Assembly: GCA_038214755.1 (NCBI GenBank)
Contig: JBBQRQ010000001.1
Coordinates: forward strand, 1 to 64,000
Origin: Verrucomicrobiota bacterium
GTDB taxonomy: Bacteria; Verrucomicrobiota; Verrucomicrobiia; Limisphaerales; CANJXF01
Length of the DNA: 64,000 nucleotides
Direction: 5' to 3'
Positions 22,706 through 60,622 of this stretch are shown here, one piece after another; positions within the stretch are counted from its first letter, which is position 1; the number at the start of each line of letters is the position of its first letter. Made by a program: the position numbers and the translations under genes. The notes beneath the pieces were generated by a model, which was not told where the DNA came from, made no database searches, and saw only the letters and a list, made by a program, of their open reading frames with translations.

Positions 22706-22768
22706 TCAGTTTTTCACGCAGCGAAATCCGGTGTGTGACAATCCTGTGTCCGGCGAAGTTTTCATCCG
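22706..22768 (-). pseudogene. Stranded 3' end of the FGE-family gene (second allele of 23681-23743)
   Basis: Encodes RMKTSPDTGLSHTGFRCVKN*, identical to the gene C-terminus; 8 of 21 codons differ, all synonymously. Confidence 0.9.
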
Positions 22769-22823
22769 TGTATTTGTTTTCATTGAGGTTGACCACGTTC
22801 CCCCCTGATGACAATTTGTCATC

Positions 22824-23132
22824 GTGCGGCTTATCAAGAAAAGCTTTTTGATTCAAAAGCAGAAAGAATTTCCAAAGGCGGCAAAGTATTTGCGGGGATG
22901 GCGCGGTGTGGTCGAAGCAGCGAAATGGCAAAACATTGTCGATGTGCGAAAAACCTACGCCAGCGCGGACGCCGTTCGAGTGAAAAGCGGGAGGAATGTG
23001 GTCATATTCAATGTTGGTGGGAATACCTATCGGCTCATTGCCGCGCTGCATTACAATCGGCAGATTGCTTATACGCTTAAATTTTTAACGCACGCTGAAT
23101 ACAGCGAAGAACGATGGAAAGACGAGTTATGA
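22824..23132 (+). CDS. higB: HigB-family toxin
   Basis: VIFNVGGNTYRLIA..FLTHAEYS. Confidence 0.88.
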   Translation: MRLIKKSFLIQKQKEFPKAAKYLRGWRGVVEAAKWQNIVDVRKTYASADAVRVKSGRNVVIFNVGGNTYRLIAALHYNRQIAYTLKFLTHAEYSEERWKDEL

Positions 23133-23560
23133 AAAACAGAAATTCCTCGAAACTTAACTTCACAAGTTTGCCGAAAACTTATTCGCGCTTAGTGAACCTG
23201 CACATGTTGCGCCCGGTTCACGACCACGTTGAACTTAAGAATGCGCTGGAAATACTCGATGTCATGGCCGGTCAAAAACTCTCGGCGGAACAGGACGATT
23301 ATTTTGAAGCGCTTTCTACATTGGTCGAGGCATACGAAGGTCAGCAGCTTCCAGCCACAAAATTGAGCGGTCTTGAATTGCTGCAACATTTAATCGAAGC
23401 AAACGACATGTCAGCGGCAGATTTGGCCCGCTTGCTGGACTGCGATCGAAGTCTCGGGGTGCGTCTTCTCAGCGGCGAACGTCAACTGAACATTACGCAC
23501 CTCAAAAAATTATCTGCGCATTTTGGTTTGCCCACGCAACTTTTTCTCGAGCTGGACTAG
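23129..23560 (+). CDS. higA: HigA-family HTH antitoxin
   Basis: LSTLVEAYE, C-terminal HTH, LSGERQLNITHLKKLSAHF; ATGA coupling to higB. Confidence 0.88.
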   Translation: MKNRNSSKLNFTSLPKTYSRLVNLHMLRPVHDHVELKNALEILDVMAGQKLSAEQDDYFEALSTLVEAYEGQQLPATKLSGLELLQHLIEANDMSAADLARLLDCDRSLGVRLLSGERQLNITHLKKLSAHFGLPTQLFLELD

Positions 23561-23577
23561 AAGATCTTTCATAGGTT

Positions 23578-23649
23578 GTAGCCGCCGACGTGAGGAGGCG
23601 GATTCGAGATCTTTTCAGCCGAAATCCGCCTCCTCACGTCGGCGGCTAC
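23578..23649. repeat. REP-like perfect palindrome
   Basis: Same family as 13112-13188. Confidence 0.9.
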
Positions 23650-23680
23650 GGGTGTTGGACTGATGACCCAATTGTAGGTT

Positions 23681-24763
23681 CTAATTTTTCACGCAGCGAA
23701 AACCGGTGTGCGACAGCCCCGTGTCCGGCGAAGTTTTCATGCGAGCGCTCGGACGATAACCCGTGCAATAAAGTTCACTGCACAAATACGAACCGCCGCG
23801 CGTCACCCGTTTCGAAACACCAGGTTCGTTTGGATCAAAACTATCATTTGGCCCGGGCGGATTTTTCTGCGCGCTCTGCTCGTAATAATCAGGCCGATAC
23901 CAATCGGCGCACCATTCCCAGACATTTCCGGCCATGTCATAAAGCCCGAATTGATTCGCCGGAAAAGTCGCGACTGGCGACGTGAGACGAAAACCATCGG
24001 CCAATAAATTTTCGTTCGGAAATTTTCCCTGCCAGATATTCGCCATCCATTTGTTACCGGGAACTTTTTCCTGGCCCCAGACGAACGGCTGTTTGTCCAA
24101 TCCACCGCGCGACGCGTATTCCCATTCCGCTTCGGTCGGCAAACGTTTGCCCGCCCATTTGCAATAAGCCATCGCGTCATCCCAACAGACCTGAACGACG
24201 GGATGCTTTTCCATTCCTATGAGATTTGAGTCAGTCCCCTGAGGATGACGCCAGTTCGCGCCCGGCACATAAGTCCACCAGGCATAATGATTTTCCAGCG
24301 AAACTTCTCCCGGCGGTGGCGTGAAAACAATCGAGCCTGGAACTAAATTTTCCGGCGGCACACCGGGGAAATCTTTCGGGTCCGGTCTGCGTTCGGCCAC
24401 GGTGACGTAATGCGTGGCGCGCACAAATTTCTCGAACTCCTCATTCGTCACTTCTGTTTTATCCATCCAAAATCCCTCCACGGCGACTTCATGAATTGGC
24501 TTCTCATCTTCCTGTCCGTCGTCGGAACCCATCCAGAATTTTCCAGCGGGAATCCAAACCATGTTGTTGGTGTCGGGCGGCGAAATAACTTGGTGGCCGA
24601 GTGCGCCGGGCTTGTCGAATTTTTTGGCAGAATCTTTGTTCGCCATTTTCGTCGTCACGACCGAACCCACCGCGACGCCGACTAAAACAATCGCAAAGAT
24701 GGCGATGATTTTCCCTGTGGAAACTGCGTTTGGATTCTTCGGTGTTTTCTTTTCTTTTTTCAT
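23681..24763 (-). CDS. Formylglycine-generating enzyme (sulfatase-modifying factor) family protein
   Basis: FWMGS, EVTNEEF, RLPTEAEWEYA, GNVWEW, RGGSYLCSELYC, GFRC. Confidence 0.93.
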   Translation of the reverse strand: MKKEKKTPKNPNAVSTGKIIAIFAIVLVGVAVGSVVTTKMANKDSAKKFDKPGALGHQVISPPDTNNMVWIPAGKFWMGSDDGQEDEKPIHEVAVEGFWMDKTEVTNEEFEKFVRATHYVTVAERRPDPKDFPGVPPENLVPGSIVFTPPPGEVSLENHYAWWTYVPGANWRHPQGTDSNLIGMEKHPVVQVCWDDAMAYCKWAGKRLPTEAEWEYASRGGLDKQPFVWGQEKVPGNKWMANIWQGKFPNENLLADGFRLTSPVATFPANQFGLYDMAGNVWEWCADWYRPDYYEQSAQKNPPGPNDSFDPNEPGVSKRVTRGGSYLCSELYCTGYRPSARMKTSPDTGLSHTGFRCVKN

Positions 24764-24777
24764 TTTTCTTTTTGGAC

Positions 24778-24950
24778 GGAGCGCCGGTTTGCCACCGGCT
24801 TTTGGCGATGCACGAAGGAGCGCGGAATTTATTCCGCTTCAGCTCGATCACGGTTTGTAATCACCGCACACACCAACGATGCGTCGCGTTGAAGCGGAAT
24901 AAATTCCGCGCTCCTTCGCAATCCAAAGCCGGTTGCAAACCGGCGCTCCC
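24778..24950. repeat. Nested palindromes (REP inside REP)
   Basis: Outer ggagcgccggtttgc/gcaaaccggcgctcc; inner gaaggagcgcggaatttattccgcttca/tgaagcggaataaattccgcgctccttc. Confidence 0.85.
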
Positions 24951-24975
24951 GGCGGTCATAGACGCGCCGCTACAA

Positions 24976-26586: not shown

Positions 26587-26828
26587 GGGCAAAGATTTAT
26601 TTGAAAACCGGTTGGCAAGCGAATCCATTTTCGGAGCGAAGATGTTTTGATTGGTTGAGCAGCCGAGAAAACTTGCAGGAGTTGAAGAAGCCGCTGTAGC
26701 CGGACGATTCCGTAAATCCAATTCGATTACGAATGGATACGAATGAACCCCAAGCAAAACATTCGCACACCCGCTTCGGCTCAAGACAGAGGACTGGGGC
26801 ACATTCGTGTCGTTTCCTGGTTTCCGCA

Positions 26829-28313: not shown

Positions 28314-28356
28314 GGGGAAATTATTTCCAGATTTTGCCGAAGGGGAAGTCTGGTCT

Positions 28357-28630: not shown

Positions 28631-28749
28631 GTTTTCCTCCCGAGCGCGGGTAGAGCGAGACCCCGTCGAGATCCATTCAAAATTTTTTACTCCGATTAAA
28701 AAGAGAACAGGCCAAATCTCGACGGGAGTCTTGCTCTACCTGGTTTTGC

Positions 28750-28785
28750 AAAAAAAAGCGGCGTTGCTTTTTCGACAACGCCGCT
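28750..28785 (-). terminator. Rho-independent terminator of 28802-31102
   Basis: agcggcgttg/caacgccgct 10-bp stem with an A-run on its left (U-tract on minus strand). Confidence 0.75.
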
Positions 28786-28801
28786 CCGCCTTTCCGCGGA
28801 A

Positions 28802-31169: not shown

Positions 31170-32045
<876 letters not shown>

Positions 32046-32247
32046 GTTTAACGTTTAACCGAAGGGAACAAGCAGTGCGATTCAATTAATTTACTACTGG
32101 AATTCTCCCATGAACACGTCGGTCGCCGAGGGGAAACTGTCCGCGCATTAATGAAAGATTTCATGGATGAGAAGTATGTAACATCCCTCCCGGTTTTTTT
32201 CCAACTATTTTCCTCCGCGCGAGGTAATCCTGGGTTGATTCATATTA

Positions 32248-32406
32248 GGTGAGGCTGGTTTGGGTTTCCTTTTGACGGCGGCGGCGTGACGCCGCTTTTC
32301 CTGCACGTTACGCGATGGAGAAAGTGCATCAAATGAACCTTCCTGGCTTTTCCACCGTGCAGCCAAAGTGGGGACGTGTTCCCCAGTCCAAAACAAGATC
32401 GGTTCC
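32248..32406. repeat. Dispersed ~160-bp repeat, copy 2
   Basis: Aligns with 86-247. Confidence 0.85.
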
Positions 32407-32491
32407 CGTCTCCACAGTTTTTAATCACGCTCGGTAATCCGGCGGGATTCGCGATTGGCAATCCCAACTCAATCGCTCTAGCTTTGGAACG

Positions 32492-33343
32492 ATGGCGCTG
32501 CAAAAATTGACTTTAGGACATTCGCCCGACCCCGACGATGCGTTCATGTTTTATGGTCTGGCGAAGAATTTAATTCCTACCCACGGTTTTTCTTTCGAAC
32601 ATATTTTGCAGGACATTCAAACTCTCAACGAACGCGCCACTCGCGGCGAACTGGATATTTCCGCGATCAGCATTCACGCCTACGCCTACGTCAGCGGCCA
32701 GTATGCGCTGCTGCCGAGCGGCGCGAGCATGGGCGATGGCTATGGCCCAATGCTGGTCGCGAAAAATAAATTTACCCGCGAAGAAATCGCGAAAAAGAAA
32801 ATCGCCATTCCTGGAAAAATGACGAGCGCGTTTCTGGCGATGCAACTTTGGCTGGAAAAATCCGCTGACCAAAAAAATTTAATTGTCGTTCCGTTCGATC
32901 AGATTTTTTCCGTCGTGCGTTCGGGCATGGCCGATGCCGGACTCATTATTCACGAAGGACAATTGACTTATCAAAATGAAGGTTTGGTGGTTTGCCAGGA
33001 CCTCGGAAAATGGTGGGGGGAAGAAAATGACGGATTGCCATTGCCGCTCGGCGGGAATGTGATTCACAAACGCTTTGAGGAAAAAACGCGCAAAATCATT
33101 TCCGACATTTTGACGGCGAGCATTCAATTCGGTCTCGATCATCGCGCTGATGCCGTGCAACACGCGTTGCAATTTGCCCGCGACATGGGACGCGACCTCG
33201 CGGACAAATTCGTCGGGATGTATGTCAATCATTGGACACTCGACTACGGAGAGCGTGGCAGAAAATCTATACGCCTGTTCCTCGACAAAGCTTACGAGCA
33301 AGGATTGATTCCGCACCGCCAGGAATTGGAATTTGTCGTCTGA
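32492..33343 (+). CDS. mqnD: MqnA/MqnD family menaquinone (futalosine pathway) protein, MqnD-like
   Basis: GHSPDPDDAFMF, IIHEGQLTY, LPLPLG, MYVN. Confidence 0.8.
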   Translation: MALQKLTLGHSPDPDDAFMFYGLAKNLIPTHGFSFEHILQDIQTLNERATRGELDISAISIHAYAYVSGQYALLPSGASMGDGYGPMLVAKNKFTREEIAKKKIAIPGKMTSAFLAMQLWLEKSADQKNLIVVPFDQIFSVVRSGMADAGLIIHEGQLTYQNEGLVVCQDLGKWWGEENDGLPLPLGGNVIHKRFEEKTRKIISDILTASIQFGLDHRADAVQHALQFARDMGRDLADKFVGMYVNHWTLDYGERGRKSIRLFLDKAYEQGLIPHRQELEFVV

Positions 33344-39419: not shown

Positions 39420-39422
39420 CAT

Positions 39423-39495
39423 CGTAGCCGCCGACGTGAGGAGGCGGATTCTGGCTGGTAAACTACGACTCCGCCTCCTCGCGTCGGCGGCTACG
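39423..39495. repeat. REP-like palindrome
   Basis: Same family as 13112-13188. Confidence 0.85.
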
Positions 39496-39507
39496 GGTGA
39501 TCGATTT

Positions 39508-40104
39508 ATGATCCCAATTTCAGACGAAACACTGGCTCAACAAGCGCAGGCTGGAGACATGACGGCGTTTGAGGAATTGGTTTTTCGTTACGAAACGCGC
39601 GTCTATCGCTTTCTCGCGAATTCTTGCCGCAACCAAACCGATGCCTCCGATTTGTGTCAGGAAACTTTCGTCGCCGCGTTTCGCAATCTGAAAAAATTCG
39701 ACTCGACGAAATCTTTTTGCACCTGGCTTTTCACCATCGCTCGACGAAAGAGCATCGATCATCACCGCAGCCATCGACCTCAGCGCGGAGAAGCGCTGCC
39801 CGAAATCGCGGACACGAATGATCCGGCGAGTTTGTTCGCGCGCCAGCAAAGGGAAAAAGACCTTTGGAAATTGGCGCGCGGAATTTTACCCGGGAATCAA
39901 TTCCAAGCGCTCTGGTTGAAATACGCGGAGGATATGACCGTCCAGGAAATCGCGCGCGTCATGCAAAAGACGCTGACGCATATCAAAGTGCTGTTGTTTC
40001 GCGCGAGAAAGTCGCTTGCTCGCGAAATTGAAATGCGGGAGGCCGACGGGGCCATTGTCAAAACCGAAAAACATTTTTTGAGCCGTCAAAGTTTTCAAAC
40101 GTGA
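39508..40104 (+). CDS. ECF sigma-70 factor
   Basis: AFEELVFRY, DLCQETF, WLFTIAR, EIARVM..KVLLFRAR. Confidence 0.92.
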   Translation: MIPISDETLAQQAQAGDMTAFEELVFRYETRVYRFLANSCRNQTDASDLCQETFVAAFRNLKKFDSTKSFCTWLFTIARRKSIDHHRSHRPQRGEALPEIADTNDPASLFARQQREKDLWKLARGILPGNQFQALWLKYAEDMTVQEIARVMQKTLTHIKVLLFRARKSLAREIEMREADGAIVKTEKHFLSRQSFQT

Positions 40105-41197: not shown

Positions 41198-42625
41198 ATG
41201 CAAAAAACCATTTTTCTTTTTCTGACCCTTGTGTCGGCGCTTGGTTCATCTGCCGCCACCAAACCTAACATCGTTTTTATCCTTGCCGATGATCTCGGCT
41301 ACACGGATGTCGCTTGTTACGGCAGTAAATATTACGAGACACCAAACATTGATCGGCTCGCGCAGCAGGGGATGCGGTTCACCGATGGACATACTTGCGG
41401 ACCAAATTGTCAGCCGTCCCGCGCCGCGTTGATGAGCGGTCAATACATGCCGCGCACCGGGGTTTATACTGTGGGCGGCATCGACCGATTCAATTGGCAA
41501 AGTTGTCCTTTGCGGCCAGTGGATAATGTCACGCAACTTCCGCTGGAAAAAATCACGGTCGCGCAATCTTTGAAAAAAGCCGGTTACGCCACCGCCATGT
41601 TCGGCAAATGGCATTTGGGAAATGACGCAGCGCATCATCCTTCCCAGCGGGGATTTGATGAGGCCATTGAAAGTTCCGGCGTCCATTTTAATTTCAACAC
41701 GAATCCAAAAACCGATTATCCAAAGGGAGAATATCTCGCCGATTTTCTGACGGACAAAGCGGTTGATTTTATTCGCCGCCACAAGGACGGACCCTTCTTT
41801 CTTTACCTGCCGCACTTCGCCGTTCACCAACCGCTTCAAGCCAAAAAAGAATTGATCGAAAAGTTCGAGAAAAAAACTCCAGTCGGCGGACACAAAAATC
41901 CGACTTGCGCCGCGATGATCCAAAGCATCGATGAAAGCGTTGGCCGCGTTCTCGCCGCGCTCGATGAATTGAAGCTTGCTGAAAACACGCTCGTGATTTT
42001 TTCCAGCGACAACGGCGGGGTCGGCGGATATGAGCGCGAAGGAATTAAAAAAGAAGGCGACGTGACGGACAACGCGCCGTTGCGCGGCGGAAAAGGAATG
42101 TTGTACGAGGGCGGACATCGCGTGCCCTATATTTTTCGCTGGCCGGGCAAAATTGCCAAAGGGACAACCTGCGCCGAGACAATAACCGGGGTTGATTTGT
42201 ATCCCACCTTGCTCGAAGTCGCCGGAGCAAAACCTCCCGCAAATTATCCGCTTGATGGAGTGAGCTATCTCAAACTGCTGACGAGTGATGGGAAAGCGAA
42301 ACTAGATCGCGACGCCATTTATTGGCATTTCCCCGGCTATCTCGGCGCAGGCGCGGACCAATGGCGCACGAAACCAGTTGGCGTGATTCGATCCGGTGAT
42401 TGGAAGTTGATGGAATTTTTCGAGGACAATCATCTTGAGCTTTACAATTTGCGCGATGACCTCAGCGAAAAAAACGATCTCGCGTCGAAGAATCCTGAGA
42501 AAACAAAAGAGCTTCAAGCCAAACTCGCCGCCTGGCGCAAAGAGTTGAATGCCCAAATGCCGACACCCAACAAACCGACCAACGTTGTTTCCAAAAAGAA
42601 GAAGAAAAAAGGCGGCGAGGATTAA
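41198..42625 (+). CDS. Arylsulfatase-like sulfatase (Cys-type)
   Basis: KPNIVFILADDLG, CQPSR, GKWHLG, SDNGG, ELYNL. Confidence 0.95.
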   Translation: MQKTIFLFLTLVSALGSSAATKPNIVFILADDLGYTDVACYGSKYYETPNIDRLAQQGMRFTDGHTCGPNCQPSRAALMSGQYMPRTGVYTVGGIDRFNWQSCPLRPVDNVTQLPLEKITVAQSLKKAGYATAMFGKWHLGNDAAHHPSQRGFDEAIESSGVHFNFNTNPKTDYPKGEYLADFLTDKAVDFIRRHKDGPFFLYLPHFAVHQPLQAKKELIEKFEKKTPVGGHKNPTCAAMIQSIDESVGRVLAALDELKLAENTLVIFSSDNGGVGGYEREGIKKEGDVTDNAPLRGGKGMLYEGGHRVPYIFRWPGKIAKGTTCAETITGVDLYPTLLEVAGAKPPANYPLDGVSYLKLLTSDGKAKLDRDAIYWHFPGYLGAGADQWRTKPVGVIRSGDWKLMEFFEDNHLELYNLRDDLSEKNDLASKNPEKTKELQAKLAAWRKELNAQMPTPNKPTNVVSKKKKKKGGED

Positions 42626-42673
42626 ACGAATCCACGCTCACCGACCCTTGCCAAGGATTCTCCGCGTACTCTA

Positions 42674-43495
42674 TTACTTCGTCGCTGCGAATTTCCCTCT
42701 CTGCGCCGTTCCAAGTGGGCTAAGGAATTGCCTCGCACCAGCGGCGATGAAGTCGAGAACCTTGGGAGCCTGAAAGAAGAGGAAACCTTGCTTCTGAAAT
42801 CGTTTTAGATCCTCCGGCGTACGAGCGGGCCGTCCCATCACCTTACCAAATTTCTTTCCGGCACCTGCAATTTTGGAAATGGCTTCTTCCAACCGTGGGT
42901 GATTTTGTTTGCCGCGAAGCCCGAGCGAGAACGAAAGGTCGCTCGTGCCGATGAAGAGCACATCAATGCCAGGAGTGGCGGCAATCTCTTCGATATGAGA
43001 GAGCGCCGTCGCATCCTCGACGACCGCGACCACCAGAACGTTTTCATCCGCAAAATCGTAATAGCCTTCCGGTGCCGGCCAGCGGAACGCAGCGAGGTCA
43101 GCACCCGATCCTCGCAAACCTGCAGGCGGATAGCGGCACGCGGCAGCGGCTTGCCGCGCCAGGTCCGGTGTGCTGGTGAAAGGAAAGATCACGCCGAGCG
43201 CCCCGGTGTCGAGGACGCGTCTGGCGGACCAAAGTTCATTTACGGGCGGACGAACGAACGGCACCGCCGGCAATCCGCGCGTGGCCAGAACGATGTTGCG
43301 CACTGTCTCCAGGCTGATGGGCGAATGTTCCATCTCAAGCCAGAGGAAATCGAAACCAAGCGCGGCGGCATGGGCGGCGACCTCAACATTGTTGACGTTG
43401 ATCGTGATGCCGATGACGGGCTGGCCACTCTTGAGTTTTGCCTTAACCGGATTTTTCCATTTCGAATTGGCCGGCGTTCTTTTTCTCGATCGCAT
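42674..43495 (-). CDS. HpcH/HpaI aldolase family protein
   Basis: GFDFLWLEMEH, RVLDTGALG, PGIDVLFIGTSDLS. Confidence 0.9.
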   Translation of the reverse strand: MRSRKRTPANSKWKNPVKAKLKSGQPVIGITINVNNVEVAAHAAALGFDFLWLEMEHSPISLETVRNIVLATRGLPAVPFVRPPVNELWSARRVLDTGALGVIFPFTSTPDLARQAAAACRYPPAGLRGSGADLAAFRWPAPEGYYDFADENVLVVAVVEDATALSHIEEIAATPGIDVLFIGTSDLSFSLGLRGKQNHPRLEEAISKIAGAGKKFGKVMGRPARTPEDLKRFQKQGFLFFQAPKVLDFIAAGARQFLSPLGTAQRGKFAATK

Positions 43496-43560
43496 AAACG
43501 TGGTTCGCTCTGCGTCACTGTGTGGGAGGGGGAAACTCTTTGACCAGCCAAACTTCCGAA

Positions 43561-43846
43561 ATCTCGCAGGCGCGGACCAATGGCGCACGAAACCAGTTGG
43601 CGTGATTCGATCCGGTGATTGGAAGTTGATGGAATTTTTCGAGGACACAAATCATCTTGAACACTACAATTTGCGAGCTGACCTCAGCGAAAAAAATGAT
43701 CTCGCGTCGAAGAATCCTGAGAAGGCAAAAGCGCTTCAAACCAAACTCGCCGCCTGGCGCAAAGACTTGAACGTCCCGATGCCGACGCGCAACAAACCAA
43801 CGAACGTCGCTTCCAAAAAGAAGAAAAAAAAGGCGGCGAGGATTGA
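43561..43846 (+). pseudogene. Stranded second copy of the sulfatase 3' end (42339-42625)
   Basis: AGADQWRTKPVGVIRSGDWKLMEFFED...KKKKKK; near-identical at the start, diverged distally. Confidence 0.92.
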
Positions 43847-43911
43847 GGCCGTTGCCACGCCGCCTAACGAATCCAAACTTACCGACTGCGGAGTAGTTTG
43901 CTCGTCCGATT

Positions 43912-44136: not shown

Positions 44137-44258
44137 TCCGCGGCAATCATGGTATTTGGATGACGCATGAACTCGCGCAAATCCGTTTCGCTCATGCCGT
44201 GAAACACCGCCGATGCGCCGCCATTTTTCTCGATCTCCAAAATCATTTCAATCTGATC
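44137..44258 (-). pseudogene. Stranded copy of part of the D-aminoacylase gene (45320-45441)
   Basis: 122-nt ungapped match; 7 differences, all synonymous in the aminoacylase frame. Confidence 0.9.
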
Positions 44259-44614
44259 CGCACGCGATGAACTTCGATCAGGAAGAGTTTGCCGTGGTAG
44301 AATTCCTGAGCCGGATGGCTATCGAGAAAGGCGACCAGTCGTTCCATCAGTTGCGGAATAATCTCCGGGTGATTGTGCAATTGAACGGCCAGGATACCGA
44401 GGAAGTTCGCCGGCGGATAGGCCACGATGTCGGCGAAATCGCCATTGAGGGAAAGGAGAATCGCGCCCAGTTCGTGCGCCTGGGCGATGACCACCGGGTC
44501 AAGCGAGCGGACGGGAAGAACTTCGCGCAGTAAGGTGACCTGATGTCCGTGTCGGCGAAGCGTGTCGCTGATTTCGGCCGGCACGCATTGGTCGCTGAAG
44601 AACCGCAGGCTCAT
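44243..44614 (-). CDS. DUF5615 PIN-like toxin
   Basis: MSLRFFSDQCVP, LLSLNGDF. Confidence 0.82.
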   Translation of the reverse strand: MSLRFFSDQCVPAEISDTLRRHGHQVTLLREVLPVRSLDPVVIAQAHELGAILLSLNGDFADIVAYPPANFLGILAVQLHNHPEIIPQLMERLVAFLDSHPAQEFYHGKLFLIEVHRVRIRLK

Positions 44615-44832
44615 GCCGGTACGGCTTCAAACTCCGCCAACTCGCGCGCGTAATCCAGACAGGCCGCCACGTCGGTCGCAATGAGGTCGGGGAATTCCTG
44701 CTGGATGGCTGCGGCATCGCGTCCTGCGGCCAAATATCCCAGAATGAGCGCCACGGGAATTCTGGTGCCTTTAATGCACGGTTTGCCACGGAGGATTTGC
44801 GGATTGCTGACGATGTGTTCACGCCAATTCAT
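44611..44832 (-). CDS. DUF433 family antitoxin
   Basis: IVSNPQILRGKPCIKGTRIPV..DVAACLDYA. Confidence 0.9.
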   Translation of the reverse strand: MNWREHIVSNPQILRGKPCIKGTRIPVALILGYLAAGRDAAAIQQEFPDLIATDVAACLDYARELAEFEAVPA

Positions 44833-44949
44833 ACGACGGATTATGTCATGGTATCGAGTGAAGGCGAGTTCTTTGCGCCGATCAAACCAGACGCGCAGTT
44901 CATCCTTGCGCAACTGTTCCGCGCATCATGGCAAAAATATTTCGGTTTA

Positions 44950-46521
44950 TCAGTTGAGCTTTGAAGTATGTCGCAAAGCCATGCCCGGTCGCGCGCCAGT
45001 ATGCTCGTCGTTTTCGACAACCCTGACGCCATTTACAAAAACATATTTAAATCCAGTTGAGTAATGATGCGGATCTTTGTAGTTCGCATTGTCGATGATC
45101 GTCGCGGGATCAAACACCACGATATCCGCCCAATTTCCTTCGCGTAATTCGCCGCGATTTTTAATTTGAAAAGTTGTCGCCGGAAGCGAAGTCATTTTCC
45201 GAATGGCATCTTCGAGCCGCAAAACTTTTTCCTCTCGCACGTATTTGCCGAGCACACGCGCGTTGTTGCCATAGCCGCGAGGGTGGGGGACGCCTTCGTT
45301 CAATTTTCTCACGCCGCTGTCCGCTGCAATCATCGTATTGGGATGACGCATGAACTCGCGCAAATCCGTTTCGCTCATGCCGTGAAACACCGCCGACGCG
45401 CCGCCGTTTTTCTCAATCTCCAAAATCATTTCAATCTGGTCGTCGAGCGAATCGCTGTGGCGGGTTTTTTGCGCGGCTTCGACGATGTTCAATCCATTCA
45501 ACGATTTGTCATGCTTGTAGGAAGCGATCACGGCGTAGGCGTAACTTTCGCTGCCGCGACGCTGCAATCCGTCCTTCATCTGAGCGATAATTTTTTTCTT
45601 TTGTTCCGCATCATCGAGCCGTTCGATCAACTTTTTGTTTCCGCCATCTTTCGCGCTGTCCGGCACGAGTTGGCTGATGCCGGTGCTCGAAGCGGTGTAG
45701 GCATATTGGTCCTGAGTAATGTCGAGTCCTTCGCTGCGCGCTTTTTCGATGGCGGCAATGACCTGATCGGTCTTTCCCCAATTTGATTTTCCAGAAAGTT
45801 TGATGTGCGAAATTTCCGCGCGAATGTGCGCTTCGCGAGCGATGCGAAAAATTTCGTCGAGCGATTTCAAAATCTCTTCGCCCTCGCTGCGTTGATGCGT
45901 TGCATAAATTCCATCGTAAGCCGAAGCCACTTTCGCCAGCTCGATGATCTCTTCGGTCTTGGCGAAAACTCCCGGCAGATAAATCAAGCCCGTCGAAAGT
46001 CCGACCGCGCCATCCTTCATCGCTTGCTCGACGAGTGAACGCATCATGTTCAATTCTGCCTCGGTGGGCGGGCGCATGAATGAGCCGCCCATCGCTTTTC
46101 CGCGAACCGTTCCGTGCCCGATCAGCGTCGCGACATTCGGAGACATTTTGATTCGCTCAAGCTTTTTAAAAAATTCTCCAACTTTTGCAACTGAGCCGCC
46201 GCAATTGCCGAGCACCAAAGTCGTGACACCCATGCGCACGAAATTTTCGCCGAGCGGCTGCTCGCTGATTTCCTCGGCGTGGGTGTGGACGTCGATGAAT
46301 CCCGGGGCGACCACCATTCCGCTGACATCGATTTCCTTTTTTGCGCGTTGATGGATTTTTCCGATGGCAACGATGCGCCCTTTTTTCACGGCGACGTCGC
46401 CGAGGTAAGACGGATTTCCCGTGCCGGCCGCGATGCGGCCGTTGCGCAAAATCAAATCGTAATTTTTTGCATCGAGAGAAAAGACCGCGCTAAACAACGC
46501 CAAAGTCATCCAAATTTTCAT
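44950..46521 (-). CDS. N-acyl-D-amino-acid deacylase (amidohydrolase)
   Basis: APGFIDVHTH, GNCG, GLSTGLIYLPG, PHPRGYG, ADIVVFDP. Confidence 0.92.
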   Translation of the reverse strand: MKIWMTLALFSAVFSLDAKNYDLILRNGRIAAGTGNPSYLGDVAVKKGRIVAIGKIHQRAKKEIDVSGMVVAPGFIDVHTHAEEISEQPLGENFVRMGVTTLVLGNCGGSVAKVGEFFKKLERIKMSPNVATLIGHGTVRGKAMGGSFMRPPTEAELNMMRSLVEQAMKDGAVGLSTGLIYLPGVFAKTEEIIELAKVASAYDGIYATHQRSEGEEILKSLDEIFRIAREAHIRAEISHIKLSGKSNWGKTDQVIAAIEKARSEGLDITQDQYAYTASSTGISQLVPDSAKDGGNKKLIERLDDAEQKKKIIAQMKDGLQRRGSESYAYAVIASYKHDKSLNGLNIVEAAQKTRHSDSLDDQIEMILEIEKNGGASAVFHGMSETDLREFMRHPNTMIAADSGVRKLNEGVPHPRGYGNNARVLGKYVREEKVLRLEDAIRKMTSLPATTFQIKNRGELREGNWADIVVFDPATIIDNANYKDPHHYSTGFKYVFVNGVRVVENDEHTGARPGMALRHTSKLN

Positions 46522-46695
46522 CGGTGCATTTTCCGAAATTGAAGAGCGGAAAGCGATAAGGTTTTTAGCTTGCCTGATTGGCAAAAACAAAATCAATCCA
46601 GACGAATTGAACCAATGCGTCGTCGCGCTGGCCGTGATGTGTTACGCGATTGCTGATGGAAAAGAAGATTTGCTTCGCCGATAATCGACGCATTG

Positions 46696-47285
46696 TTACA
46701 ATACGTCGTGCCGTAGAACCTTCTCCCGCCACTTTCGCACACTACTCATGTCCATCCGTTCGCCCTTGAATTCGATCTGCTTCACCGGCTTCGTCCCGTT
46801 CTGGCTTTCGCGTTTGAGCACGCTGCTGATTTCCATCCAGCGCACGTCGGCGAACTCCACCTTCTCCTTCCCGACGGCCCGCTCGTCCTCCTCGGAGAAG
46901 GTGCCGATCACGAGCATCACCGGATGGGGCTGATTCATCCACGTCTTCACCCAGCGCTGTTTCCGGATCGTGAAAATCTCCGCCCCGTCCGCCTTCCTCT
47001 TCGTGAGATGCGAATTGCCGGCCTTGAGTTGCAGGCAGAGTCCCTTGCCGGTTCCATTACCGTCCTCATTGGTGAATTCGAGCAGGATGTCGATCCCGTC
47101 GTCCTCATCCCCGGGAACCTCGATCCATTTCTGATTCGCGCTCGTGATGCGCGCGCCGACATCGAGCACGAGCAGCTTCCCTTTTCTCCGCGTGGTCAGT
47201 TTCGCGAGATCGTCCGCCTGAAGTTCCTCCACCTGCCGGCGCCCCGCCTCGCTGGCAAACTTCCTCTCCAGCGCATCCCAGAGCG
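46696..47285 (-). pseudogene. C-terminal fragment with a DUF4365-like PD-(D/E)xK domain
   Basis: DDGIDILLEF..LCLQLKAG; upstream part replaced by REP sequence. Confidence 0.65.
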
Positions 47286-47287
47286 GG

Positions 47288-47391
47288 AGGGCCAAAGGCC
47301 CGTCCACAAGCCAGCCCAGGGCAAGCGAGGAACGAGCGCCGCCCTGGGTTCTTCCGGACAAAAATGAAAACAAGCCCCAACGGGGCGCGAC
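47288..47391. repeat. REP flank of the Y1 transposase (left)
   Basis: agcccagggcaagcgaggaacgagcgccgccctgggt..agccccaacggggcg; inverted relative to 47873-47972. Confidence 0.9.
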
Positions 47392-47400
47392 TAGACCCGC

Positions 47401-47856
47401 TCAATCCCACACGTATCGTTCATCGATCTCGACGCCATGTTTCCGGCAAAGCGCCCGAAACTCATCCTGAAATGACACCTCGCGATGATGCTCCTCCTGC
47501 GTCGCGACATAGGCCCGGACCTGCTCGACGTTGGATTGGCTGACGGAAAACGCGCCGTATCCACCCTGCCAGTGGAAATCTCGGTAAGCGGGTGCCTGTT
47601 CCTTCATCCATTTCGACGGACCTGTCTTCGCCTTTTCCACCAAATCCGCGATGGTGACGGTTCGGGAAAGATTGCACAGGATGTGAACGTGATCTTCCAC
47701 GCCGCCGATGAGGATGGGTTCGCACCCGATGTTTTGCAGGACGCCCGCCATGTAGCCGTGCAGCCGGGCGCGAAGTTCCGGGTCTTTGAGAAAAGGAACA
47801 CGATTCTTCGTGCTGAAGACGACATGCAGGACGACGCGGGCTAATGATTGCGGCAT
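47401..47856 (-). mobile_element. tnpA: Y1 HUH transposase (IS200/IS605 TnpA or REP-associated tyrosine transposase)
   Basis: HVVFSTK, DHVH (HUH), WQGGYGAFSVS, YVATQEEHH. Confidence 0.92.
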
Positions 47857-47872
47857 AATGGAGCGAAATTGT

Positions 47873-47972
47873 TACGCCCCGTTGGGGCTTTGCCCATTCT
47901 ATATTTCCAGACCCAGGGCGGCGCTCGTTCCTCGCTTGCCCTGGGCTGGCTTGTAGCAGGCCGTTGGCCTTG
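47873..47972. repeat. REP flank of the Y1 transposase (right)
   Basis: cgccccgttggggct..acccagggcggcgctcgttcctcgcttgccctgggct. Confidence 0.9.
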
Positions 47973-48035
47973 GGCTTCGCGTCGCTTCAGTCGCCGCCGA
48001 AATACCACAGCCAGATTTCTGGATCGAGGCCGAGA

Positions 48036-49247
48036 TCATCGTTTTCTAGCGCCACGCTCTATACGCCAGACGAAATAGGCCGGGGAGCGGCGAGTTTCGC
48101 GCTTCGTTTCATGGGAGTCCCATAGTGCTTTGATTGCCGCGGCTATCGGTGCACTACAACCTGCAATAACCGAAGGGAGCGCAAGCCCATGGACGGCTGC
48201 GATAGTTAGAGCCGTGCTGGCAACATACGCGCCGCTTCTGGCAATCGAGTTCATCCGAGCAAGCCGGTTACAAGTATGGCGGACTTTTTCTAGCTCATCC
48301 TCTAACAAATCACGCTTGAGCTGCTTGGCCGCTTCTGTAGTGTCTTTAGCATTAGAGGCATCCTCAATCGCCCGGTCGAGCTTCCGTCTGAACGCTGTTA
48401 GTGATTCAGCTTCATCCTCAAGAACCTTAGCAAGAAGTGGAAGCGGTATGTTTTCGAGGAATGGAATTTCGAGTCGAAGCAGAGGATCTTCGTCCGGCGG
48501 TTTCAATGTTTCGCTGAGATCAGATAAATGCGTCGCACCCAACACATCGGCTTTCAGCACATCCTCGCCGACTGATGCCGCATTTATCCCGGGAGAAATG
48601 AAAGGAGTAAACGCTACTTGTCCCGAAACCATGAGTGGCTGGCAATCCTCAAGGAACTGATTCTCCTGCGGGATCGCAACGTGCAAAAATCCACCTGCCA
48701 AATGACAGTGCTCGCCGTGGGCATTGATGGAAGGGTCTGCCAAACGAGAAGACATGGTGCGGTTCCATCGCGACGTGCCCTTGCCTGACCAGTCTGCCGC
48801 TAATAAAGCCGTCTCGGACGACACGTCTGCAGAGGCGATCATCTTCGCAACCATTGCTACTAGCCAATCGCGGGCTGGCGCGAATCCGAGACGGCTACCA
48901 GTTTTTGGGTCAATGCTGGCAGATGCGCCAAGGACTGGACTCGCTAGTTCATCAGAGATTGGAAAAACGGAGTAACCAGAGGGCTTGACCCATTCATCTA
49001 CGCTAAAGCAGACGAGGTCCGCTGCGATTAGACCTCGGCGAATCGCTCCTGCTGCTTCAACTGGCGAGCCGACAATGCGAATGGCTTTCCTACCAGGGAA
49101 CTCGCGGATCGACTCGATGTAGTCTTCGACTGAGTGTTTGATGTGGAAATCGACTAACTCTGTCTTTGCCTTGGGGAACGTGGCTACCAAGTCGAAGAGG
49201 GCTTGATTCAAGGCAGCCAATCTCTTTCTGTTATGTTCAATCCGCAT
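48036..49247 (-). CDS. Hypothetical protein with a C-terminal coiled coil and hydrophobic hairpin
   Basis: 403-aa ORF whose sequence style differs from the host genes; no motif recognised. Confidence 0.65.
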   Translation of the reverse strand: MRIEHNRKRLAALNQALFDLVATFPKAKTELVDFHIKHSVEDYIESIREFPGRKAIRIVGSPVEAAGAIRRGLIAADLVCFSVDEWVKPSGYSVFPISDELASPVLGASASIDPKTGSRLGFAPARDWLVAMVAKMIASADVSSETALLAADWSGKGTSRWNRTMSSRLADPSINAHGEHCHLAGGFLHVAIPQENQFLEDCQPLMVSGQVAFTPFISPGINAASVGEDVLKADVLGATHLSDLSETLKPPDEDPLLRLEIPFLENIPLPLLAKVLEDEAESLTAFRRKLDRAIEDASNAKDTTEAAKQLKRDLLEDELEKVRHTCNRLARMNSIARSGAYVASTALTIAAVHGLALPSVIAGCSAPIAAAIKALWDSHETKRETRRSPAYFVWRIERGARKR

Positions 49248-49614
49248 GTTGCGCCAGGGAGCCTTTGATGGGGGCGTCGTCGAGCCGCAGGGGAAGGAAG
49301 CGGCGCTCCTTGTTCAGCGGGTCGCGAAACCGGAACGTGCCGGACTCCAACTGCGCCCAGTCCGAGCCGAACGCATGGGCCGACATGCAGAGCACCAGCA
49401 CGCGCGAGTGCTCCAGCCCTTCCTCGATCTTCGCCGCCCTCACCCCTGACCCCTCTCCCATCCGATGGGCGAGGGGAACCTCAGGCTTGAGCCCCCATTC
49501 ATCGAACCACACCTTCACCCCGTCCTTCCGCAACCGTTCCGCCAGCGGGCGCACCACCGCCTTGTCCTTTGCGCTGTGGCTCAGGAAGACGTCGTGTTGG
49601 AAATCATTCGACAT
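49237..49614 (-). pseudogene. Truncated TIR-domain protein (N-terminal fragment)
   Basis: DVFLSHSAKDK, VWFDEW, IEEGLEHSRVLV, SDWAQLE; ends abruptly. Confidence 0.8.
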
Positions 49615-52798: not shown

Positions 52799-52899
52799 AA
52801 AAGCGGTAGAGGACTACCGCACTCCAAGACGCTCGCGCGTTGGATAATCGACTTGGAATGGCGCGAAGCGTCTTGGTGTGCGCCAGTCCTCTGGCGCTT
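52799..52899. repeat. REP-like element (family of 11173)
   Basis: aaagcgg..cgcactccaagacgct..gaagcgtcttgg..cagtcctctggcgct. Confidence 0.85.
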
Positions 52900-57947: not shown

Positions 57948-57980
57948 AGGTGAGGCGTGTTGAGCGTTCGGGAATTGAGT

Positions 57981-58178
57981 TCATTCATCGCGCGATGCCA
58001 ACTGCGCTGACCGACGAAGCAATGATTGTTTCCAACGATTCATTTCAATGTGGGAACGGAATTTTTGCGATGAAAAAGAAGGCAGCGTCGGCGATTCAGC
58101 AAGCGGCGCGACCATCTGATTTTCCGCCCAGATACGGAGCTTGGCTTTGTAATCGTCGGTATATTTTATGCGCTTCAT
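57981..58178 (-). CDS. Small hypothetical protein (possible orphan antitoxin)
   Basis: 65 aa; KFRSHIEMNRWK motif. Confidence 0.5.
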   Translation of the reverse strand: MKRIKYTDDYKAKLRIWAENQMVAPLAESPTLPSFSSQKFRSHIEMNRWKQSLLRRSAQLASRDE

Positions 58179-58210
58179 TTAATTGAAAGTGGCCATTGCG
58201 GCAACGGAGA

Positions 58211-58350
58211 TTATTGCGAGAAGGCTGGTTTATTCTTAGGCCAGAGGTGGTTTTGTTCGTAGGCGTGCGCGATTTTCAAAATGGTTTCCTCGCCGAAAGG
58301 TTTGCCAAGGAGTTGGTGGCCGGTGGTAGTTCGGGATTTGTCGTGAAACC
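58211..58350 (-). pseudogene. Stranded second allele of the gatA 3' end
   Basis: GFTTNPELP../[21 protein letters not shown]; the 21-codon core is protein-identical to gatA with 9 synonymous differences. Confidence 0.9.
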
Positions 58351-58365
58351 CCAGCGCAACTCAAC

Positions 58366-58599
58366 TCATTCGCGAACGGACAAAACTTTTTTGCGTCCCT
58401 CCGAGTGCAAGCGCAACGACAACCGACCGGCGCGCACCCATCGTTTTTCCGCGCCCGCCTCGCGCACCATTTCCAGCAGGTAATGGATAAGAGTGGAGGT
58501 GGCTGCTCCCTGTTTGTGGCGAAATCGCCGCCGTCCAATCGCCAGCGCCCCGAATGACTCTGCCTCAGCCGCCTCGGCCAAATTGATTTTAGGTTTCAT
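58366..58599 (-). CDS. Small hypothetical protein coupled to the GNAT-like gene
   Basis: ATGA overlap with the 58596 stop. Confidence 0.55.
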   Translation of the reverse strand: MKPKINLAEAAEAESFGALAIGRRRFRHKQGAATSTLIHYLLEMVREAGAEKRWVRAGRLSLRLHSEGRKKVLSVRE

Positions 58600-59162
58600 A
58601 AGGTGATCCAACTTTGAGCTTGAGCTAATTTAAAAAATTCTTCTGCCGAATCAACATCGAATGTGAATACGTCGTAATTCTCATCCGATTTCGCGGTCTG
58701 TTCGGTCATGCCGATTCCCCGATAAAACATCAGCGTCTTTGCATCCGCCAACGACTCCAGCCATATTCGTCCTGCCATTCCCAATTCTTTACTGCGTGCC
58801 ACGGCCACAGCGAGCAACGTCACGCCGACATATTTCAGACCGCCCGTTCGATTTCTTGGATTCGTCGCCAGATACTCTAGGACGAGGGCTTCCGAACGTC
58901 CAATTTTTCTCCCTTTCGCCTCTATCGCCATCAAGCCATGCAGTTCTTCTCCTACGACTGCTGCGTAACACTCAATCGACGACCGACTGCGTTGAGTGAT
59001 CGCAAAAATTCCAGCCCAATCCCACTCGCGGTCGAGAGCGTTCTCTTCGTAATCCCACTGCGATTGTGCGGCGATGTCGAGCCACGTTGCTCGATGAATT
59101 TCCCCATTGACCCTGGCGCTATTTGCTCTTTCGACAAAACGCGCGGCAACAGGAAATTTCAT
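58596..59162 (-). CDS. GNAT-fold acetyltransferase-like protein
   Basis: [37 protein letters not shown] overlap with the gatA stop. Confidence 0.75.
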
Positions 59163-60622
59163 AATGCCGCTTTCTCTTCGTGCCAATTCGTGGATTGCTC
59201 GTAGGCATGAGCGATTTTTAAAATCGTTTCTTCGCCAAAAGGTTTTCCGAGGAGTTGCAAACCGATGGGCAGTTTTGGGTTTGTCGTGAAGCCGCAGGGA
59301 ATACTGATCCCCGGAATGCCGGCGAGATTGCAGGAGATCGTGAAAATATCGGACAGATACATTTGCAACGGGTCGTCGGATTTTTCGCCGATTTTGAAAG
59401 CAGGCGTCGGAGTCGTTGGCGTGACGATGGCGTCCACTTTTTCAAACGCTTTCAGGAAATCCTGGCGGATGAGCGTGCGGACTTTTTGGGCGCGCAAATA
59501 AAATGCGTCGTAATAACCGCTGCTCAAAACGTAAGTGCCGAGGATGATGCGGCGTTTGACTTCCGCGCCGAATCCTGCGCCACGAGTGCGGCTGTAAAGT
59601 TCGTCGGGGCTCGTGCCTTCGACCCGCGCGCCGTAGCGGATGCCATCGAAGCGCGCGAGGTTGGCGCTGGCCTCGGCGGTGGCGACGATATAATAAGTTG
59701 CGACGGCGTAATCAGTGTGCGGCAAAGAAATTTCCACGATTTCCGCGCCCAGATTTTCGAGTTGCTTGACGGCTGTGTGGACCGCAGCGCTCACTTCAGG
59801 ATTCATCCCGCCGATCATGTATTCCTTTGGCAAACCCAGCCGCAGTCCTTTGATCTCGCCATTCAACGCCGCTGAATAATTTGCAACTGGTTGAGGAACA
59901 CTCGTGGAATCCCGATGGTCAACTCCGCTCATTACCTCGAGCAATATCGCCGCATCGCGCACGTCTTTTGTCAGCGGACCAATTTGATCGAGCGACGATG
60001 CAAATGCGACGAGACCGTATCGCGAAATGCGTCCGTAAGTTGGCTTGAGTCCGATGCAGCCACAGAGCGCGGCGGGTTGGCGAATCGAGCCGCCGGTGTC
60101 GGTGCCGAGTGATGCGAGACATTCGTCCGCTGCGACGGCTGCCGCCGAACCGCCGGATGAACCGCCGGGAATTCGCGTCGTGTCCCACGGATTTTTCGTG
60201 ACGCCGAACGCGGAATTTTCCGTCGAACTGCCCATGGCAAATTCATCCATGTTCAATCGGCCAAAAATAATTGCTCCAGCGGATTTTAATTTTTCAATGG
60301 CCGTCGCGTCATACGGCGAAATGAATTGGCCGAGAATTCCTGAGCCGCAATTCAGCGGCTGATTTTTCACGGCGAGCACGTCTTTGACGGCGATAGGAAT
60401 TCCGAGCAGCGGTCTTTGTAATTGCGTTGCGCCGCTGAAAATTTCTTTATCTGCGGCGTCAGCCTGGGCGAGAGCATCCGTCGCATCGTAAGAAATAAAA
60501 GCGTGAACTTTCCCCTCCACGCGCTGGATTTGGTCGAGGCACGATTGCATCGCTTCGCGCGCGGAGACTTCGCGCTTGGATAATTTTTCTGCGAGTTCGG
60601 AAATAGTGAGTTGGTTGAGCAT
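59159..60622 (-). CDS. gatA: Asp/Glu-tRNA amidotransferase subunit A
   Basis: [42 protein letters not shown]. Confidence 0.98.

Follow-up and report, generated by a model that had tools for sequence, protein, structure and literature searches.

Repeated gene ends beyond small recombinase-free cargo genes in a Verrucomicrobiota genome: probable scars of homology-anchored DNA capture

In homology-facilitated illegitimate recombination (HFIR), one homologous anchor is combined with one non-homologous joint, and no mobile-element enzyme takes part. It was reportedly described in natural transformation by de Vries and Wackernagel and by Prudhomme and co-workers, both in 2002, and experiments are usually said to yield insertions accompanied by deletion. 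Restriction-modification genes are said to insert with a long duplication of their target, a process attributed to Nobusato and co-workers in 2000, and C-terminal displacement with orphan modules was reportedly described for Rhs and contact-dependent inhibition (CDI) toxin genes by Jackson and colleagues in 2009 and Koskiniemi and colleagues in 2014. In Furuta et al. 2010 (PMC2853133), long target duplications around restriction-modification genes occur mostly in naturally competent species, and the published repeats are near-identical (43-47 of 46-47 bp). A second source (PMC13626634) describes the prophage e14 in icd of E. coli, where the element supplies the gene end and the displaced end (icdC) is a pseudogene with conservative differences. 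Here we describe a layout that occurs four times in a 64,000-nucleotide (nt) stretch of DNA from a Verrucomicrobiota bacterium, called the window below (contig JBBQRQ010000001.1 of assembly GCA_038214755.1, positions 1 to 64,000): an intact gene, then one or two small cargo genes, then a remnant, that is, a second copy of part of the same gene.

A first-pass annotation, made from the letters of the window alone, had read this layout as recurrent capture of DNA without an integrase, in which the gene receives a new 3' end and the old host allele is left stranded beyond the cargo. Our follow-up extends the layout to the whole genome and to related species, and leads us to think that these structures are probably scars of integrase-free, homology-anchored capture of foreign DNA from diverged relatives. 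Recurrence, allelic divergence, the lack of an integrase and the existence of empty sites all stood up as parts of the earlier reading; the idea that the remnant is the native allele did not.

The genome of the window (G000) is a 5.1-Mb draft of 175 contigs, 97% complete, from a sediment metagenome. Self-BLASTN of the window and tblastn of its open reading frames (ORFs) recovered all four layouts at the places given by the first-pass annotation (Table 1), each with the second copy downstream of the gene and in the same orientation. Three of the pairs have cores that differ only synonymously, as had been claimed. The two copies of the formylglycine-generating enzyme (FGE) gene end lie 975 nt apart, and 8 of their 21 codons differ, with 8 synonymous and 0 non-synonymous changes; the stop is TAG in the gene and TGA in the remnant. 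The gatA copies (59195-59297 and 58253-58354) are 80% identical over a stretch with a 21-codon core of 9 synonymous and 0 non-synonymous changes; the remnant has a 1-nt frameshift upstream of this core and a tail unlike any gatA of the genus. The 122-nt amidohydrolase copies are separated by 7 synonymous changes, with a single D>E change at the edge in addition. The sulfatase repeat is of another kind: its initial 82-83 nt are identical, and in the remainder the identity falls to about 88%. Indels of 3 nt and 1 nt separate the copies, as do 20 nt inserted past the stop, and the BLAST-aligned codons hold 9 synonymous and 10 non-synonymous changes.

Two details of the earlier description had to be changed. 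The second copy is the 3' region of the gene for FGE, sulfatase and gatA, but the amidohydrolase remnant is an internal piece: no second copy of the last 122 codons was found, and the 291 nt that follow the repeated piece have no match in the genome or in the relatives' loci. Likewise, the cargo behind gatA, described as a GNAT pair, is one 196-aa ORF that matches no Pfam family even at E<=1 and has no homologue in the relatives' gatA loci or elsewhere in the genome. Judged by family, the DUF5615/PIN-like and DUF433 genes behind the amidohydrolase are a predicted toxin-antitoxin-like pair. The true start of the aldolase gene is probably near 43490-43540, because its 324-aa ORF runs into the repeat.

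Table 1. Positions in the window of the four intact genes, their remnants and the cargo between them
Feature	Position	Strand	Remarks
FGE-sulfatase (formylglycine-generating enzyme family) gene, intact	23681..24763	-	PF03781, E 6e-86
FGE remnant, 21 codons including stop	22706..22768	-	copy of the gene's 23681-23743
FGE cargo: HigB-like toxin	22824-23132	+	PF09907, E 6e-23
FGE cargo: HTH antitoxin-like (HigA-like) gene	23114-23560	+	HTH_3, E 3e-4
Palindromic REP-like repeat, multi-copy	23558..23673	.	between higA and the FGE stop codon
Sulfatase gene, intact	41198..42625	+	PF00884, E 4e-69; 42346-42650 is copy 1
Sulfatase 3'-end remnant	43565..43886	+	frameshift; 20-nt insertion after stop
Sulfatase cargo: HpcH/HpaI aldolase, one gene	42674..43540	- (opposite strand)	PF03328, E 4e-30, from aa 84
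Amidohydro_3 (D-aminoacylase-like) gene, intact	44950..46596	-	PF07969, E 2e-24; 45320-45441 is copy 1
Amidohydrolase remnant, internal piece, aa 386-426 of 548	44137..44258	-	122 nt
Amidohydrolase cargo: DUF5615/PIN-like	44243-44614	-	PF18480, E 9e-10
Amidohydrolase cargo: DUF433	44611-44913	-	PF04255, E 8e-22
gatA (amidase), intact	59159..60646	-	PF01425, E 3e-158; 59195-59297 is copy 1
gatA-end remnant, aa 449-495	58220..58360	-	match to the gene at 58253-58354
gatA cargo: 196-aa ORF, no known family	58596..59186	-	no Pfam match at E<=1

The claim that the layout recurs was borne out by a genome-wide repeat screen. Whole-genome self-comparison (BLASTN-level similarity, E<=1e-4, cargo up to 6-8 kb) was combined with a crude ORF calling, in which the longest non-overlapping ORFs of at least 60 aa were taken and no gene finder was used. 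With duplicates removed and cargo limited to 6 kb, 45 pairs in 43 ORFs were obtained from the 5.1-Mb draft, about 1% of the genome's genes; the 43 include an ilvD remnant and an ORF on C65 that may be a paralogue. The median repeat is 106 nt (range 35-647), with a median identity of 89% and a median cargo of 804 nt. The layout is more frequent than expected by chance, because short direct repeats (30-350 nt, at least 75% identity) exceed inverted ones at 0.5-2 kb spacing (175 vs 40) but equal them at 8-32 kb (164 vs 158). Repeats that touch a C-terminus have their partner downstream in 47 cases and upstream in 8; for repeats that touch an N-terminus the partner is upstream in 23 and downstream in 13. 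Among the N-terminal pairs are some that resemble a mirror-image outcome of this process: in one, 45 synonymous and 9 non-synonymous changes fall in 468 nt, and in another 16 and 6 fall in 266 nt.

Housekeeping genes predominate among the hosts: purB, deoC, pyruvate carboxylase, accC, transketolase (tkt), gyrB/parE-like, glyA, ilvD, pyruvate dehydrogenase E1 beta, ftsK and thrS, and further fdhF/ydeP-like, mqnE, phoH2, DAHP synthase, pilB/gspE, nuoE, pcrA/uvrD, mutS, lipA and tatD. Within one gene the remnants vary in length (512, 129 and 74 nt for ilvD; several lengths for thrS). Five fragments lie downstream of thrS in the genome of the window, and a second thrS 3' half, 90% identical, is found on its contig C42 (L032), 18 kb off and in opposite orientation. 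The thrS halves are about 5 kb apart in the related genomes G001 (C42) and G007 (C144).

How the two copies of a gene end came to differ is central to their interpretation. If a gene end had been duplicated in place and the remnant had drifted, we estimate that about 40% of the changes would be synonymous. Pooled over 2369 codons, the rates of synonymous (dS) and non-synonymous (dN) substitution are 0.43 and 0.067, with dN/dS 0.16; without the C65 locus dN/dS is 0.13, and the pooled dS lies at 0.41-0.43. These ratios are far from the value near 1 that would have refuted the first-pass annotation, and fit its view that the copies are alleles from different lineages. Among loci with at least 5 substitutions (n=40), 21 are individually above 40% synonymous (p<0.05) and 22 are at least 70% synonymous, and a single pair in 45 is identical (C26:29492, 100% over 41 nt). 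The fdhF/ydeP-like gene gives a long example: its 566-nt remnant is 0.912 identical to the gene end, with 42 synonymous and 7 non-synonymous changes, and the same segment compared between species of the genus has an identity of 0.90-0.91, equal to the distance between gene and remnant. In-place duplication followed by neutral decay was therefore rejected as the main source of the differences (dN/dS 0.13-0.16 against an expectation of about 40% synonymous changes). Recombination between paralogues could fit the sulfatase, which belongs to a large family; it fails for the single-copy genes gatA, ilvD, tkt, mutS and lipA. The substitutions support the view that the two copies are alleles that diverged as functional genes rather than a duplicate that decayed in place, and the gene-end copies appear to come from lineages diverged to about the level of species. 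As the differences are mainly synonymous, at least one copy at each such locus would have been in a working gene of another lineage until recently.

The substitution pattern also bears on the FGE locus by itself. FGE-sulfatase and C-type-lectin folds are typical targets of diversity-generating retroelements, and the FGE repeat occupies the extreme 3' end of its gene, where such an element with its template repeat downstream could be imagined. The 8 differences, however, are all synonymous and are not confined to the adenines of one copy, a pattern that refutes this explanation; no reverse transcriptase family was found among the ORFs scanned in the window from 20.9 to 64 kb, and the same layout is present at about 40 unrelated genes. 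We give it practically no weight.

The boundaries of the repeats are equally informative. In 33 of the 45 pairs the homology ends no more than 6 nt from the final base of the stop codon, and in 1 of 45 it passes the stop by more than 6 nt; the stop-codon boundary is also seen in pairs of 95-97% identity, where common non-coding sequence would remain visible. It follows that the cargo stands directly after the stop of the gene, and the native flank directly after the stop of the remnant. At its upstream end the repeat breaks off sharply, and inspection by eye showed no motif there common to the loci. No identical core was found at the 5' edge, the median first mismatch being 5 nt from either end, and the identity by thirds of the repeat (0.87, 0.88 and 0.86; Wilcoxon p 0.48) shows no gradient. 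A shared attachment (att) motif or identical core, considered as an explanation of the sites, was seen neither at the junctions nor at the repeat edges; the statement that the four targets share no obvious att motif held by eye, and no cognate integrase with att cores that would account for the sites was found. Other loci, deoC and galK among them, show the reverse of the sulfatase repeat: they are diverged first and then identical, over the last 52 and 46 nt in these two.

What lies between the copies was studied by a Pfam scan of 85 ORFs, comprising 82 cargo ORFs and 3 window ORFs. The families found among the cargo include ORF6N, DUF4258 (twice), HTH_3/HTH_31, CAP12-type TIR, Phd with PIN, Gp49 with an HI1420-type antidote, a DUF234 ATPase, DUF6932, AbiEii, DUF5615, SocA_Panacea, more PIN genes, NTP_transf_5 and DUF2442; most of the remaining cargo ORFs have no Pfam family. 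Adjoining small genes that match toxin and antitoxin families point to type II toxin-antitoxin modules among the cargo. They would be HigB_toxin with an HTH gene and DUF5615/PIN_10 with DUF433 in the window, and elsewhere in the genome the Phd/PIN and Gp49/HI1420-type pairs together with DUF4258, AbiEii, SocA_Panacea and the other PIN genes. The proposal that toxin-antitoxin modules hitchhike behind conserved genes is supported in so far as toxin-antitoxin and defence families are found in the cargo, alongside many ORFs without a Pfam match. The GC content of the cargo is 0.515, compared with 0.535 in the host genes (p 0.004). Multi-copy repeats lie within the cargo at 13 of 45 loci, and on contigs C98 and C107 the cargo is almost only a hairpin element like a doublet of repetitive extragenic palindromic (REP) sequences; the layout is therefore independent of the kind of cargo. 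Transposition of cargo within the genome was considered and rejected, the cargo genes having no near-identical copies elsewhere in the genome.

None of the 85 scanned ORFs matches a recombinase or transposase family. A six-frame profile search of the whole genome gave five matches to PF00589 (tyrosine recombinases) and one to PF00239 (serine recombinases), none of them on contig C1 or inside any cargo. The window accordingly has no match to either family, in line with the statement that it lacks an integrase; it does hold a Y1/HUH transposase (47401-47856). Of the sole large serine recombinase gene of the genome (C7:54363-57315), a part of the 3' region (aa 561-596) occurs a second time 1 kb downstream.

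Could the structures nevertheless be decayed integrative elements, the textbook reading of such a layout, of the e14/icd type or like cis-mobilizable elements (CIMEs), in which a recombinase inserted an island carrying a spare gene end and the integrase was later lost or acted in trans? Toxin-antitoxin modules are plausible last survivors of such elements. Direct repeats of the target gene end do flank the cargo, and the ilvD remnants have boundaries common to two species. On metagenome contig L148 (1615-4975) a HigA homologue lies in a 3.3-kb stretch between 38-nt repeats that resemble the 3' end of a tRNA gene, which looks like a classical integrase-type signature. Moreover, the order of gene, element and C-terminal pseudogene, with differences that are synonymous, is the known mark of e14 in icd (PMC13626634). 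Against this, neither a recombinase gene nor a detectable fragment of one was found by the six-frame PF00589/PF00239 searches and the Pfam scan of 85 ORFs at the approximately 43 loci, although the remnants have barely decayed (dN/dS 0.16), and 6 recombinase matches in the genome would have to serve more than 40 unrelated target sequences that have no common motif and no identical core at the repeat edge. The repeats reach 400-612 nt and differ in length within one gene, and when the screen was extended to cargo above 8 kb only 4 more cases appeared. We consider this origin unlikely.

Eight other species of the same genus were searched for the same loci; none of our conclusions depends on the unpublished genome G009. 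Cargo-free alleles, which the first-pass annotation had suggested looking for, are present at two of the sites. LarA and FGE genes are convergent and 3-7 nt apart, with no cargo, in G005, G006 and one contig of G002, whereas in G004 and G007 an unrelated ORF of about 210 aa lies between them; in G001, G003 and G005 the sulfatase and amidohydrolase genes converge with about 38-144 nt between them (spacing computed from coordinates). The aldolase has orthologues of 272-273 aa in G001 and G005, inside a different conserved operon and not beside a sulfatase. Downstream of gatA each species has different content, and no gatA remnant was found within 1.5 kb downstream in seven relatives. The relatives carry remnants of their own, which argues that the process operates across the genus: G005 has an fdhF-like remnant 5.2 kb downstream of the gene, 173-178 nt long as compared with 566 nt in the genome of the window, and G007, G002 and G003 have arrays of thrS fragments with boundaries unlike those of G000. 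Boundaries thus differ in the ilvD, thrS and fdhF-like genes, yet the ilvD remnants of G007 have the same boundaries as those of G000 (aa 387/389 and 544/545), with about 150 nt common past the junction and an adjoining cargo stretch that is 95.6% identical.

An insertion in place with a long target duplication, whose copies later diverged by recombination with cargo-free relatives, is suggested by such empty sites, since mobility-free cargo between repeats of more than 30 bp that are single-copy at the empty site corresponds to the published definition (PMC2853133). The identical pair at C26:29492 is what such an insertion would leave, and so is a locus on an unrelated metagenome contig: a higBA homologue (53% HigA identity) on L135 (3571-4506, with the same sequence in L136) stands directly behind a 786-aa ORF, the end of which is repeated perfectly over 53 nt on the other side of the cassette; only the stop differs, TAG next to the cassette and TGA in the remnant, as at the FGE gene of the window. 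The repeats that are partly identical and partly diverged could be later conversion tracts, and at 127-131 kb of contig C1 the end of an upstream gene and the start of a downstream gene are found on both sides of the cargo. A target staggered at random should, however, often extend past the stop, yet an overrun of more than 6 nt is seen in just 1 of 45 repeats; identity is complete in a single pair of the 45, with the median at 89%; and at most loci a second recombination with a partner diverged by about 10% would have had to hit a remnant of about 100 nt. A long target duplication is possible as a first step; as the whole explanation it appears improbable to us.

The capture that we favour would proceed as follows. 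A DNA fragment from a diverged relative, often at about the level of a species, would pair with the chromosome through the end of a conserved housekeeping gene, and the recombination machinery of the host would make one homologous crossover in that gene end. The other end would be joined without extended homology, in an HFIR-like manner, perhaps through the microhomology that the first-pass annotation had proposed, or alternatively through a second gene-end copy on the fragment, by an 'ends-in' or Campbell-type event. The outcome would be an intact gene, cargo directly after its stop and a second, non-functional gene end beyond the cargo. The cargo would be whatever adjoined the incoming gene end; it is often a toxin-antitoxin or defence module, whose addictive effect would help the insertions persist. 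Capture guided by homology and carried out by host recombination is suggested because the copies differ as alleles do, the boundary at the stop is exact, the far boundary is not site-specific and no recombinase is present. HFIR fits these features. The sulfatase repeat, identical and then diverged, fits a crossover 82 nt inside the repeat with a joint upstream, and an HFIR-like joint would also explain the variable remnant lengths within one gene.

With regard to how the DNA might enter the cell, the competence genes proposed as a check are present, with one ComEC match and two DprA matches above cut-offs. They are non-specific, weak evidence for competence, because most control genomes (10-11 of 14), non-competent ones among them, have these families too.

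Not every structure need be a fresh HFIR event, as the earlier reading implied. At C1:127384-131764, outside the window, a 453-aa ORF stands between two tandem genes and the whole gene-gene junction is duplicated, so that the ORF is bracketed on both sides by the end of the upstream gene and the start of the downstream gene; this and the ilvD boundaries and junction common to G007 give no support to a fresh event in each case. The deoC and galK repeats, the C1 junction and ilvD fit better to a spread of cassettes that already carry a gene-end copy, with the anchor in that copy or by 'ends-in' insertion. A fragment that starts in one gene-end copy and ends in the other would be an 'ends-in' substrate, and its insertion would regenerate a bracket of mixed alleles. 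It is conceivable, though on balance doubtful, that the bracketed cassette is itself a recombinase-free mobile element, inserted by RecA through 'ends-in' recombination at the same gene in naive relatives. If so, conserved gene ends would be attachment sites of universal use, addictive toxin-antitoxin cargo would bring the insertions to fixation, and the arrays behind thrS and ilvD would be a record of successive arrivals.

The question then arises which of the two copies was imported. At eight loci the identity of both copies to 3-8 same-genus orthologues was compared. The gene copy is closer to the relatives for gatA (7 of 7 relatives), tkt (4 of 4, by 1-5 nt), the fdhF-like gene (3 of 5) and the sulfatase (3 of 4); the remnant is closer for thrS (3 of 3) and ilvD (2 of 3). 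FGE and the amidohydrolase are about even, the 60-nt FGE repeat being too short to decide. The gatA case is clear. The tail of the gene copy (QSTxWHxEK...) is common to all seven relatives, while the tail of the remnant and the stretch upstream differ; the identity to the relatives is 0.63-0.68 for the remnant and 0.72-0.78 for the gene copy, and the changes in the remnant core are only synonymous. By these comparisons the gatA remnant is clearly the foreign-looking copy. The claim that the remnant is the stranded old host allele and the gene end the import therefore fails as a rule, the direction being mixed over eight loci and clearly opposite for gatA.

Several observations weigh against homology-anchored capture as we propose it. 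The direction predicted by simple HFIR, with a native remnant and an imported gene end, is not seen consistently. The common ilvD boundaries and junction suggest that some structures were inherited or exchanged as blocks and not made anew. No donor came to light: the best match to the higBA cargo among 400 genomes of the order is only 67% identical, the nearest HigA in metagenome contigs is 61% identical, and a 28-mer of the gatA remnant has 0 matches in the collections genome_contigs and metagenome_contigs. The perfect repeat of L135/L136 also fits a duplication made at insertion. Finally, all the compared genomes, including those of the eight related species, are draft metagenome-style assemblies, and only one public run (X1, probably the source) contains the stretch, with 0.98 of the sampled words.

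The last point, together with the 175-contig sediment draft and minor variants at 59272 and 59276 in the Logan data, would suit an assembly artefact in which contigs mix co-occurring strains. The Logan contigs of this run, assembled separately at k=31 from the reads behind the draft, are not independent data and cover the sulfatase, amidohydrolase and gatA loci. One contig (57128-59339) carries the flank, the gatA remnant, the cargo and the gatA end in one error-free piece; another (42399-43594) runs from the sulfatase repeat over the stop and the aldolase into the remnant, and a third (44184-45364) from the amidohydrolase remnant over both cargo genes into the gene. The latter two break only at 31 or more identical bases common to the repeat copies, and the depth is even at about 20-30x. 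Excision joints that skip 942, 1183 or 1219 nt were not found among the 15 of 35 joints listed. The junctions at three loci are thus bridged in a second assembly, the repeats are diverged and are not k-mer overlaps, and like structures occur in separate assemblies of other species (G005, G007, G002 and G003). A crude strain chimera is very unlikely, and artefact in general has in our view only a very slight chance of being the explanation.

Some further features of the window deserve mention. Directly upstream of gatA (60627-61386) lies a HEPN and nucleotidyltransferase pair, toxin-antitoxin-like by family. It was not found at gatA in the 8 same-genus genomes searched, where the gatA matches stop at the gene start and the pair is therefore not at that place; no 5' remnant of gatA was found. 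Between the amidohydrolase and a large ORF there is a further small island (46696-49614) with genes for DUF4365, the Y1 transposase, a 403-aa ORF without family and a TIR-domain protein (49237-49614). The transposase, IS200-like, lies between inverted repeats of about 100 nt (47290-47387 and 47875-47969; 82% identity); the unit 47290-47969 resembles a REP-associated transposase unit, and the Logan contigs show raised depth and variants there. The palindromic REP-like repeat at the FGE locus is about 75-95 nt long, has up to 168 matches in the genome and occurs also at 13105-13189 and 39422-39519; copies of 80-92% identity are present in many genomes of the order, across families, and no Rfam match was obtained at the gathering score. 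A 160-nt direct repeat of 85% identity (86-247 and 32248-32406, 32 kb apart) overlaps an 87-aa ORF at 32240-32503, beside an mqnA-like gene. At 8852-9580 a 68-aa ORF is present in two adjoining copies with 78% protein identity. A repeat family of 100-180 nt with 79-93% identity (11133-11490, 12641-12811 and 52799-52898) is partly tandem, partly matches on both strands and overlaps small ORFs. The gene content of the window, by Pfam, is planctomycete-like and includes PSCyt/PSD1, DUF1501, many sulfatases and an N-methyl pilin-like gene.

These results bear on the movement between genomes of small toxin-antitoxin and defence modules that lack a mobile-element gene of their own, and provide about forty natural examples. 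Short pseudogene stubs behind housekeeping genes can be used to trace earlier gene flow. Gene callers and scans for recombination can be misled by them, and the ends of thrS, ilvD, gatA and other essential genes may be mosaic. The ingredients are known: long repeats around mobility-free selfish modules, HFIR, gene ends displaced by elements, and Rhs 3' fragments. Their combination (about 1% of the genes of a genome, mostly housekeeping, with stranded ends that differ mainly synonymously and toxin-antitoxin, defence or orphan cargo free of recombinases, genus-wide) was not found described in searches of open-access text, which also turned up nothing relevant on HFIR with toxin-antitoxin modules or on HFIR with duplication and microhomology.

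In comparison with the described systems, long target duplication by restriction-modification genes is alike in that small selfish modules without integrase or transposase lie between direct repeats, tens to hundreds of bp long, of which the empty site in relatives has one copy. Here, in contrast, the cargo ranges from toxin-antitoxin or defence genes and orphan ORFs to a metabolic gene or REP-like repeats; the repeated piece almost always corresponds to a housekeeping gene end, up to the stop codon; and the copies show mainly synonymous differences (dS 0.43) at about 40 loci in one genome, some of them arrays. HFIR predicts both the allelic differences and the sharp, site-unspecific far boundary, but the outcome here is insertion with duplication, and its prediction of a native remnant is not borne out consistently. 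The elements e14 and phage 21 in icd, and CIMEs derived from integrative and conjugative elements (ICEs), share the order of intact gene, element and displaced gene-end pseudogene; they have a site-specific recombinase and a fixed core, whereas here no recombinase was found in the cargo and no core at the repeat edges, the repeats are variable in length and the cargo is typically below 1 kb. The Rhs and CDI loci, with arrays of displaced 3' fragments that have a conserved stretch of variable length and interleaved small genes, resemble the thrS and ilvD arrays. There, however, the new end is a different toxin tip, while at the loci described here both ends encode the same protein and the hosts are housekeeping enzymes.

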